A DNA stretch of 64,000 bases from Escherichia coli (GTDB taxonomy: Bacteria > Pseudomonadota > Gammaproteobacteria > Enterobacterales > Enterobacteriaceae). The stretch lies in NCBI RefSeq assembly GCF_024502345.1, contig NZ_JALDNN010000001.1; one strand, 5' to 3'. Positions within the stretch are counted from its first letter, which is position 1. Every line of letters begins with the position of its first letter. The notes beneath the pieces were generated by a model that did no database searches, was not told where the DNA came from, and worked only from the letters and a program-made list of their open reading frames with translations. The position numbers were made by a program, and so were the translations under genes. This document shows positions 52,974 through 55,900 of the stretch, piece by piece.

Positions 52974-55900
52974 TTACGCCTTCTCGATGTTGACTAAGAA
53001 CGCTTTATATTCCGGCGTTTGCGAGTTTGCATCACCGACATTCGGCGTCAGAGTGTTAGCGATATAACCTTTACGCGCGACACCCTCAAAGCCCCAGTGG
53101 ATTGGAATACCCACCGTTTCAACCTGCTGACCATTTACATTCAGCGGTTTCAGACGACGCGTTACCACAGCCACCGCGCGGATAAATCCACGCTTGCTGG
53201 AGACAGTGACACGATCGCCATTATTAATGCCTTTCGCCGCCGCCAGCGTTTCGCTGATTTCCACAAACTGTTCCGGCTGAGCAATTGCGTTGAGCAATGC
53301 GTGCTTGGTCCAGGTGTGGAAGTGCTCGGTCAGACGATAGGTCGTACCCACATACGGGAACTGCTCTTTTTTACCCATCCGCAGCGCGTCTTGTTCATAC
53401 AGACGAACAACCGGGTTAGACACCACGTTCGGATGCAGCGGGTTAGTGCCCAGCGGCGTTTCAATCGGCTCGTAGTGTTCCGGGAACGGACCTTCCGCCA
53501 TTTTGTTGATGGCAAACAGGCGTCCCATCCCTTCCGGCTGCATGATAAACGGCCCGGTTGGCGTACCCGGTGCGGCATTGCCGAAGTCAGGAATATCGTT
53601 ACCCGTCCACTTGCTGCCGTTCCACTGGATCAGCATCCGTTTCGGATCCCACGGTTTACCGTTGATATCCGCCGAAGCACGGTTGTACAGCACGCGACGG
53701 TTGAGCGGCCACGCCCAGGCCCATCCCAGCGTATTCCCCAGACCGGACGGGTCGGAGTTATCGCGGTTAGCCATCTGGTTGCCCTGCTCTGTCCAGCTAC
53801 CGGTGTAGATCCAGCAAGAAGATGCGGTTGTACCGTCATCACGCAGATGCGCAAAGCTACTCAGCAACTGACCTTTCTTCGCAATCAGCACGCCATTAGC
53901 ATCATAGAGATCTTCCAGCGCATAGCCGTTGTTCTCTTTTGCCACTTCGTCAGATTGCGGTTCGTGCGGCTGCTTGTAGTTCCAGCTCATCTTCATCAGC
54001 GGTTCTACGCCTTTACCACCTTCGGCCTGGTACAGCTCGCGCAGGTGATGGTAGATACCCGCCAGAATTTCACCGTCGTTACGCGCTTCGCCCGGCGCAT
54101 CCTGACCTTTCCAGTGCCACTGCAGCCAGCGACCAGAGTTAGCGATAGAACCATCTTCTTCAGCAAAGCAGGTCGAAGGCAGACGGAATACTTCAGTCTG
54201 AATAGACGCCGGATCGACATCGTTCGACTCGCCGTGGTTTTGCCAGAAGGTTGAGGTTTCAGTCACCAGCGGATCGATAACCACCATGTACTTCAGCTTG
54301 CTCAGGCAGCTCACCACTTTGTTTTTGTCCGGGAAGGACGCAACCGGGTTAAAGCCCTGGCAGAAATAACCGGTAACCTTGCCTTCGTCCATCATGTTGA
54401 AATACTTGATGACGTCGTAAGTCTGGTCCCACTTCGGCAGCCAGTCATAGCCCCAGTTGTTCTCTTTCTGCGCGGCATCGCCATAGAAAGATTTCATCAG
54501 GCTAACGAAGAACTTCGGATAGTTGCTCCAGTAGTTCACCTGACCAGCCAGTGTCGCTTTCGGCGTGTTCGCTTCCAGATACGACTGCAAATCAACCTGT
54601 TTTTCTGACGGCAGCGTCAGATAACCAGGCAGGCTGGTAGAGAGCAGGCCTAAGTCAGTCAGACCCTGAATGTTGGAGTGACCACGCAATGCGTTCACGC
54701 CGCCACCGGCCATACCCATGTTACCGAGCAGCAACTGGATCATCGCCATAGTACGGATGTTCTGCGCACCGACGGTGTGCTGCGTCCAGCCCAGCGCGTA
54801 CAGGAAGGTAGTTGTGCGATCCGGCGCGCTGGTGGAGGCCAGCACTTCACACACTTTCAGGAAGTCGGCTTTTGGCGTACCGCAGATGTTTTCTACTACG
54901 TCCGGCGTGTAACGGGAAACGTGCTCTTTCAGCAGGTTCCACACACAGCGCGGATGAGTCAGTGTTTCATCGCGTTTCGCATAGCCGTTTTCATCGAACT
55001 GATAGTTCCAGGACGATTTATCGTACTGGCGTTTTTCAGCGTCATAACCGCTGAACAGGCCATCTTCGAAAGCAAAATCATCACGCACCAGCAAGCTGGC
55101 GTTGGTGTAATGCTTAACGTATTCGGCGTTGATTTTGTTGTTTTCGATCAGGTAGCGCAAAACGCCAGACAGGAACGTAATGTCCGTACCGGAACGAATA
55201 GGTGCGTAAATATCCGCTACAGAAGCGGTACGCGTAAAACGGGGATCGACAACGATCAAGGTTGCATCGTTGTTGTTTTTCGCTTCCATCGCCCAGCGGA
55301 AACCGACGGGATGCGCTTCAGCAGCGTTACCGCCCATCACCATCACGACGTTAGCGTTTTTGATATCCACCCAGTGGTTGGTCATCGCACCGCGACCAAA
55401 TGTTGGAGCAAGACTTGCTACCGTTGGTCCGTGTCAGACGCGCGCCTGGTTGTCTACCGCCAGCATCCCGAGGGAGCGGGCAAATTTCTGGGTCAGCATC
55501 CCGGTTTCGTTGCTGGCACCGGAGGCACACAGCATACCGGTAGAAAGCCAACGGTTTACCGTTACACCCTGCTCGTTCTTTTCAATAAAGTTAGCGTCAC
55601 GGTCAGCTTTCATCAGCTTCGCAATACGGGAGAATGCTTCTTCCCAGCTAATGCGCTGCCATTTGTCAGAACCTGGCGCACGATATTCCGGGTAGCGCAG
55701 ACGGTTTTCACTGTTGACGTAATCCAGCAAACCGGCCCCTTTCGGGCACAGCGCACCACGGCTTACCGGATGATCCGGGTCACCTTCAATGTGATAAATC
55801 GCTTCTCTGGCGTTTTTTGCGCCATCACCCAGGCTATACATCAATAGCCCGCAACCTACGGAACAGTATGTGCAGGTGTTACGGATCTCTTTAGCGCGTA

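Follow-up and report, generated by a model that had tools for sequence, protein, structure and literature searches.

The in-frame UGA at codon 196 of fdnG, on the minus strand of the window (the whole 64-kb stretch of Escherichia coli DNA that was analyzed), is almost certainly decoded as selenocysteine (Sec) by way of a SECIS hairpin on its 3' side, and not read as a stop. Translation of 56021..52974 on the minus strand gave a frame of 1015 codons, in which the TGA at 55436..55434 is codon 196 and the sole internal stop, and which is closed by TAA. The minus-strand letters from the site to the next ATG of the frame are CGC GTC TGA CAC GGA CCA ACG GTA GCA AGT CTT GCT CCA ACA TTT GGT CGC GGT GCG ATG ACC. 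In the mechanical list of open reading frames (ORFs) the same frame appeared as two pieces, an ORF of 195 amino acids that closes at the TGA and one of 803 amino acids that opens at this ATG (Table 1). The interval 55383-55436, which the earlier note had assigned to the split, starts on the final base of the ATG (55385..55383) and ends on the first T of the TGA (55436..55434).

Searches of PDB and of protein families were performed with a protein query carrying X at position 196. The window protein was aligned with PDB chain 1kqf_A, named "formate dehydrogenase, nitrate-inducible, major subunit", over residues 1-1015 (2398 bits), and at position 196 both sequences have X; the runner-up PDB chains were named "selenocysteine-containing" formate dehydrogenases. 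Substitutions L342F, D493G and S666A were found in the displayed part of the 1kqf_A alignment. The family model for the formate dehydrogenase-N alpha subunit (TIGR01553) was matched by residues 2-1014 with 1621.8 bits (cut-off 814.2). The earlier note had described the TGA as lying in frame between conserved pieces of FdnG and as being recoded to Sec; the first statement was borne out by the single 1015-codon frame with its full-length match to 1kqf_A, and the second agrees with the coincidence of the TGA with the non-standard residue 196 of the solved FdnG chain. In FdnG, Sec196 is the residue that coordinates Mo.

The N-terminus of the protein (MDVSRRQFFKICAGG...) contains, as read by eye, the twin-arginine (Tat) motif SRRQFFK, with the pattern S-R-R-x-F-F-K, and by this motif it would be a twin-arginine signal peptide for periplasmic export. 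Around codon 196 the context is U-H-G-P (...ARV-U-HGP...), which fits the UHxP motif that PMC13188914 gives for formate dehydrogenases with Sec. A C follows the UGA, giving UGA-C. The 71 nt around the TGA were 100% identical in at least 5370 of the 5433 matching E. coli records; the site is no chance feature.

Table 1. Location of the recoded codon, of the SECIS element and of the genes of the fdn operon in the window.
Feature	Coordinates	Strand	Remarks
fdnG, alpha (catalytic) subunit of formate dehydrogenase-N	52974..56021	−	1015 codons, UGA at codon 196, TAA stop
fdnH, beta (iron-sulfur) subunit	52077..52961	−	TIGR01582, 482.1 bits (cut-off 334.7); fdnH in matching genomes
fdnI, gamma (cytochrome b) subunit	51431..52084	−	217 amino acids; NF007558, 486.9 bits, above its cut-off
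First ORF piece, 195 amino acids	55434..56021	−	closes at the TGA
Second ORF piece, 803 amino acids	52974..55385	−	opens at the next ATG; same frame as the first piece
In-frame UGA, codon 196	55434..55436	−	almost certainly read as Sec; aligned with X196 of 1kqf_A
Internal ATG, Met213	55383..55385	−	ORF-finder start of the second piece; 16 codons past the UGA
Bacterial SECIS, full Rfam SECIS_3 model	55381..55439	−	RF01989, 59 nt, 84.3 bits
Paired span of the SECIS	55433..55391	−	starts at the base directly after the UGA
Apical stem-loop GGUAGCAAGUCUUGCUCC	55405..55422	−	nt 15-32 counted from the U of the UGA
Island identical to K-12 fdoG	55369..55439	−	71 nt, longest identical run; gene nt 583-653

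SECIS_3 (RF01989) was the sole Rfam family that reached its threshold in the 64-kb window, with a score above the curated gathering score of 63 (E = 1.1e-19) and with model positions 1-59 of 59 aligned. The element is situated within the coding region, immediately 3' of the in-frame UGA, and its paired span falls in the approximately 45 nt downstream of the codon, where the hairpin had been predicted. Membership of the fdhF-type family SECIS_2 was rejected at 28.8 bits (gathering score 70), and the element belongs to SECIS_3. Its apical stem-loop is presumably the part to which SelB binds. Numbered from the U of the UGA, the bulged U is U17, at 55420, and the G23/U24 of the loop are at 55414/55413; at positions 17, 23 and 24, K-12 fdoG and K-12 fdhF have the same three bases (U, G and U) as the window fdnG. 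We take U17 and G23/U24 to be the bulged U and the loop G-U recognized by SelB in fdhF.

Folding of the RNA had been suggested earlier as a check of the hairpin. The minimum-free-energy structure predicted the SECIS hairpin, with −17.4 kcal/mol for the 59-mer and −14.6 kcal/mol for the 50 nt from the UGA, but the energy was unremarkable in comparison with shuffled sequences (z = −0.77), of which 39 of 200 folded equally well or better, so that the folding test is uninformative on its own. In place of stability, the evidence for the hairpin was taken from the covariance model, from covariation and from conservation at synonymous sites.

A set of homologues was obtained by scanning a collection of genomes for a nucleotide pattern based on the protein motif U-H-G-P-x-V-A-x-L-x3-F-G, in which most third codon positions were left free and 21 bases were fixed. 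The scan yielded 120 loci with 73 distinct 59-mers, mostly from Proteobacteria and with a few from Acidobacteriota and Actinomycetota. Part of the conservation in this set results from the way it was chosen, since the pattern fixes 21 bases, but the covariation is not explained in this way. In the 73 sequences, 89.6% of the cells of the Rfam structure were paired, versus 27-50% when the 3' partners were slid by 1-3 columns. The apical helix was 96.9% paired and showed two pairs with compensatory double changes (50 cells, versus 17.0 ± 4.4 in shuffles). In alignment columns, pair 21-33 was represented by GC 46, AU 17, GU 5 and CG 3, and pair 24-30 by GC 4, AU 41, GU 0 and CG 26. Columns 21, 33, 24 and 30 each fall on the third base of a codon (for Val, Ala, Ala and Leu), and thus the changes in both pairs are synonymous and coordinated. 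The lower helix was 83.9% paired with zero compensatory double changes among the 73 sequences, and its pairing is therefore weakly supported.

Conservation at synonymous sites pointed in the same direction. The 26 loci from other Enterobacterales, among which Citrobacter, Enterobacter, Klebsiella, Yersinia, Photorhabdus, Providencia, Superficieibacter and E. albertii were named, were identical to the window at 60 of 60 nt, with 20 of 20 third positions among these; over the 150 nt on the flanks of the same loci the third-position identity was about 0.4-0.8, mostly 0.4-0.7. The perfect 71-nt island shared with K-12 fdoG and the near-invariance of the 71 nt within E. coli agree with this. At the level of sequence comparison these data show that the RNA at the SECIS, and not only the encoded protein, is under purifying selection. 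There is a slight chance that so extreme a conservation exceeds what SelB binding accounts for, either through recurrent gene conversion between fdnG and fdoG or because the RNA has another role as well, for example in pausing the ribosome at a fixed point or in making a regulatory contact.

With K-12 sequences as queries, the 5426 complete E. coli genomes gave matches to selC in 5424 cases and to selAB and selD in 5425 cases each, and from this near-universality selA, selB, selC and selD are very likely present in the source genome. No tRNA genes were found in the 64-kb window. The earlier note had regarded the lack of a stable hairpin together with the lack of the sel genes as evidence that would speak against recoding; the hairpin exists, and the sel genes occur in nearly every E. 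coli genome, as counted above.

The events at codon 196 may be outlined from established knowledge of the Sec pathway of E. coli, applied here to the window copy. When the ribosome nears the UGA, the stretch of mRNA directly 3' of the codon would fold into the SECIS hairpin. The C-terminal domain of SelB, a specialized elongation factor that would carry GTP and Sec-tRNA(Sec), would bind the apical stem-loop, which lies about 11 nt from the UGA and has the bulged U17 and the G23/U24 of the loop. The tRNA would be the selC product; it would first be loaded with serine, which SelA would then convert with the selenophosphate made by SelD. SelB would bring this tRNA into the A site, competing there with release factor 2, and the product would be a protein of 1015 residues in which Sec196, by its selenium, would be a ligand of the molybdenum cofactor at the active site of formate dehydrogenase-N. 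In the source strain, SelB binding and Sec insertion would be expected to proceed in this manner.

The UGA might instead be read by a near-cognate standard tRNA (e.g., for Trp or Cys), with the conserved RNA serving another role. Nothing computed favors such decoding, which is very improbable: the element fits a SECIS family model and has the fdhF spacing and determinant bases, practically every E. coli genome has the Sec machinery, and Berg et al. (1991), as cited in PMC13188914, reported that selenium is incorporated at the K-12 fdnG codon.

A different question is whether the gene might be the paralogue fdoG, which encodes the formate dehydrogenase-O enzyme, and not fdnG. K-12 fdoG also has Sec at position 196 and a SECIS identical over at least 50 nt, and because of this identity in Sec position and SECIS the site alone cannot separate the two genes. 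The rest of the gene and its surroundings can: the DNA was 98.8-99.9% identical to genes annotated as fdnG in the listed genomes, versus 74.6% to K-12 fdoG, and the gamma subunit scored 486.9 bits on the model for formate dehydrogenase-N (NF007558, FdnI) versus 268.4 bits on the FdoI-type model (NF007924). Among single genomes, the closest copy was that of E. coli FDAARGOS_943 (99.9% identity), and most E. coli fdnG genes were about 98.9% identical; of the 5426 complete genomes of this species, 5425 had a match to fdnG.

The gene order in the window is ddpDF-osmC-bdm-sra-maeA-adhP-yddM-fdnI-fdnH-fdnG-yddG-yddL'-LRR gene-narU-narZ, with adhP and yddM downstream of fdnG and yddG upstream. The fdhE and fdhD genes of the K-12 fdo locus are not among these neighbors, and the arrangement of a fdoGHI-fdhE operon with a divergent fdhD is not that of the window. 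The assignment to fdoG, to which hardly any likelihood can be given, is refuted by synteny and identity; the gene is fdnG, as its neighbors fdnH, fdnI, adhP and yddG show, and the fdnGHI operon of E. coli lies on the minus strand of the window, in a chromosome of E. coli lineage. A scan for FNR boxes upstream of fdnG gave a site with two mismatches at 56086-56099; over the whole window 46 matches were observed versus 40.4 expected, which is not above chance, and the site is given no weight as evidence.

Compared with K-12 fdnG (Berg et al., 1991; PDB 1kqf), the window copy is the same gene, with the Sec codon at 196, the same operon and the same neighbors, and differs only allelically (by the three substitutions given above for the displayed alignment). 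For K-12 fdnG, the reading of the UGA as Sec, the need for an mRNA stem-loop in its decoding, described as essential, and the binding of SelB with direction of Sec insertion were reported by Berg et al. (1991; J. Biol. Chem. 266:22380 and 266:22386), cited in PMC13188914, a review that names the SECIS elements found in the three formate dehydrogenases of E. coli as the best characterized. In comparison with fdoG, the Sec position is the same, the 50 nt from the UGA are identical, and the 71-nt island shared with K-12 fdoG begins 3 nt before the UGA, whereas the second-longest identical run is 36 nt, the remainder of the gene is 74.6% identical, and the K-12 fdoG locus adjoins fdhD and fdhE.

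The SECIS of fdhF (SECIS_2, RF01988) is the best-studied bacterial SECIS. Like the element in the window, it is located directly 3' of the UGA and starts with the same first bases (UGACACGG), has U17 and G23/U24 at equal distance from the UGA, and carries an apical stem of similar size. The two differ in the sequences of stem and loop; the loop in fdhF is GGUC after 3 bp and in the window fdnG is predicted to be GUC after an upper stem of 5 bp.

How the gene is represented in databases bears on the remaining readings. RefSeq/PGAP carried a single fdnG CDS of 3048 nt, without a pseudogene flag, in FDAARGOS_943 and HD12481, so the claim of the earlier note that automated annotation would mis-call the gene did not hold for this pipeline. 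It did hold elsewhere: in a collection of 15 billion proteins the exact 195- and 803-amino acid fragments each occurred as a protein of its own on at least 1000 contigs, one 195-amino acid member being named "sulfate ABC transporter substrate-binding protein". Since split fragments are this widespread in public protein collections, pipelines that rely on plain ORF callers still get fdnG wrong.

A genuine nonsense mutation, leaving fdnG a pseudogene in the source strain, would account for the stop seen by the mechanical ORF finder, and in the closest genome, FDAARGOS_943, other genes near fdnG have indeed decayed, as seen from a frameshifted maeA and from insertions of IS1. This reading has next to no probability. 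The TGA and its surroundings are identical in nearly all E. coli records, as given above, and the TGA recurs in homologues of many genera; the 819 codons downstream of it are open and encode a sequence nearly identical to that of the solved protein, an above-threshold SECIS follows the codon, and RefSeq sets no pseudogene flag. Since the TGA is conserved population-wide and between genera and the frame beyond it is intact, the reading as a pseudogene is effectively refuted.

Equally negligible is the division into two separate genes for polypeptides of 195 and 803 amino acids, which would fit the deposition of both pieces as separate proteins but not the single 1015-residue chain of 1kqf_A that spans them, nor the stretch of 16 codons that separates the TGA from the ATG (HGPTVASLAPTFGRGA), which is conserved protein sequence; the ATG is internal Met213, and the deposited fragments are best explained by gene callers without a model of recoding. 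Lying within sequence that aligns continuously with 1kqf_A, the ATG is not a real start codon.

Decoding of codon 196 as Sec through the 3' SECIS is therefore the preferred reading. The finding holds but has long been known: it concerns the textbook recoding site of a bacterial selenoprotein, and biologically it holds nothing new. It matters for the quality of annotation only, in that fdnG should be called as one CDS of 1015 codons with Sec at position 196, and not as two genes or as a pseudogene.

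The 195-aa N-terminal piece of FdnG, which ends at the Sec codon, shares a 90%-identity cluster with NCBI entry EFN8991448.1 (P0004), although this entry differs from the exact sequence of the window. EFN8991448.1, likewise a 195-aa N-terminal FdnG fragment, is named "sulfate ABC transporter substrate-binding protein", apparently a wrong name that arose because the gene was split at its selenocysteine UGA.

Upstream of the fdnG ATG, at a distance of about 65–78 nt, an FNR-box-like site (TTGATTTCGCGCAA) with two mismatches was found, in keeping with the anaerobic regulation of fdnG. 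Across the whole window, matches of this kind were not above chance (46 observed, 40.4 expected).

Coordinates of the features described
Feature	Location	Strand
195-aa FdnG piece	window 55437-56021	−
FNR-box-like site	window 56086-56099	−
Truncated yddL porin remnant	window 57393-57683	+
Leucine-rich-repeat (LRR) protein gene, 443 aa	window 57707-59038	+
Regions compared between FDAARGOS_943 and the window	window 47904-49628, 57683-57707; L001 (FDAARGOS_943 comparison locus) 3565-4262, 14226-14923	
U-H-G-P-x-V-A motif loci (one Proteobacteria MAG, one Desulfobacteraceae MAG)	L034 3499-3539; L036 12010-12050	
Sec-type formate dehydrogenase alpha sites	L033 2250-2290, 8164-8204	+

The yddL remnant and the LRR gene that follows it are placed between yddG and narU. 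The annotation of matching genomes gives the former as an incomplete porin pseudogene and the latter as an "LRR domain-containing protein". In the closest genome, that of E. coli FDAARGOS_943 (99.8% identity across 19 kb), IS1 has inserted twice in the fdn region and maeA is frameshifted. In the window, no IS1 separates yddL' from the LRR gene, and the expected place of maeA is occupied by an uninterrupted 574-aa ORF.

Among the collected loci matching the protein motif around the Sec codon, the downstream sequence (GTAGCGGCTCTGGGAGAG) of L034 and L036 did not form the apical helix of SECIS_3 (Rfam RF01989), and therefore their SECIS is probably of a different shape. L033, a contig from the MAG of an uncultured member of the Enterobacterales, has two alpha-subunit sites of Sec-type formate dehydrogenases on the same strand, about 5.9 kb apart, a pairing that suggests tandem fdn/fdo-like operons.
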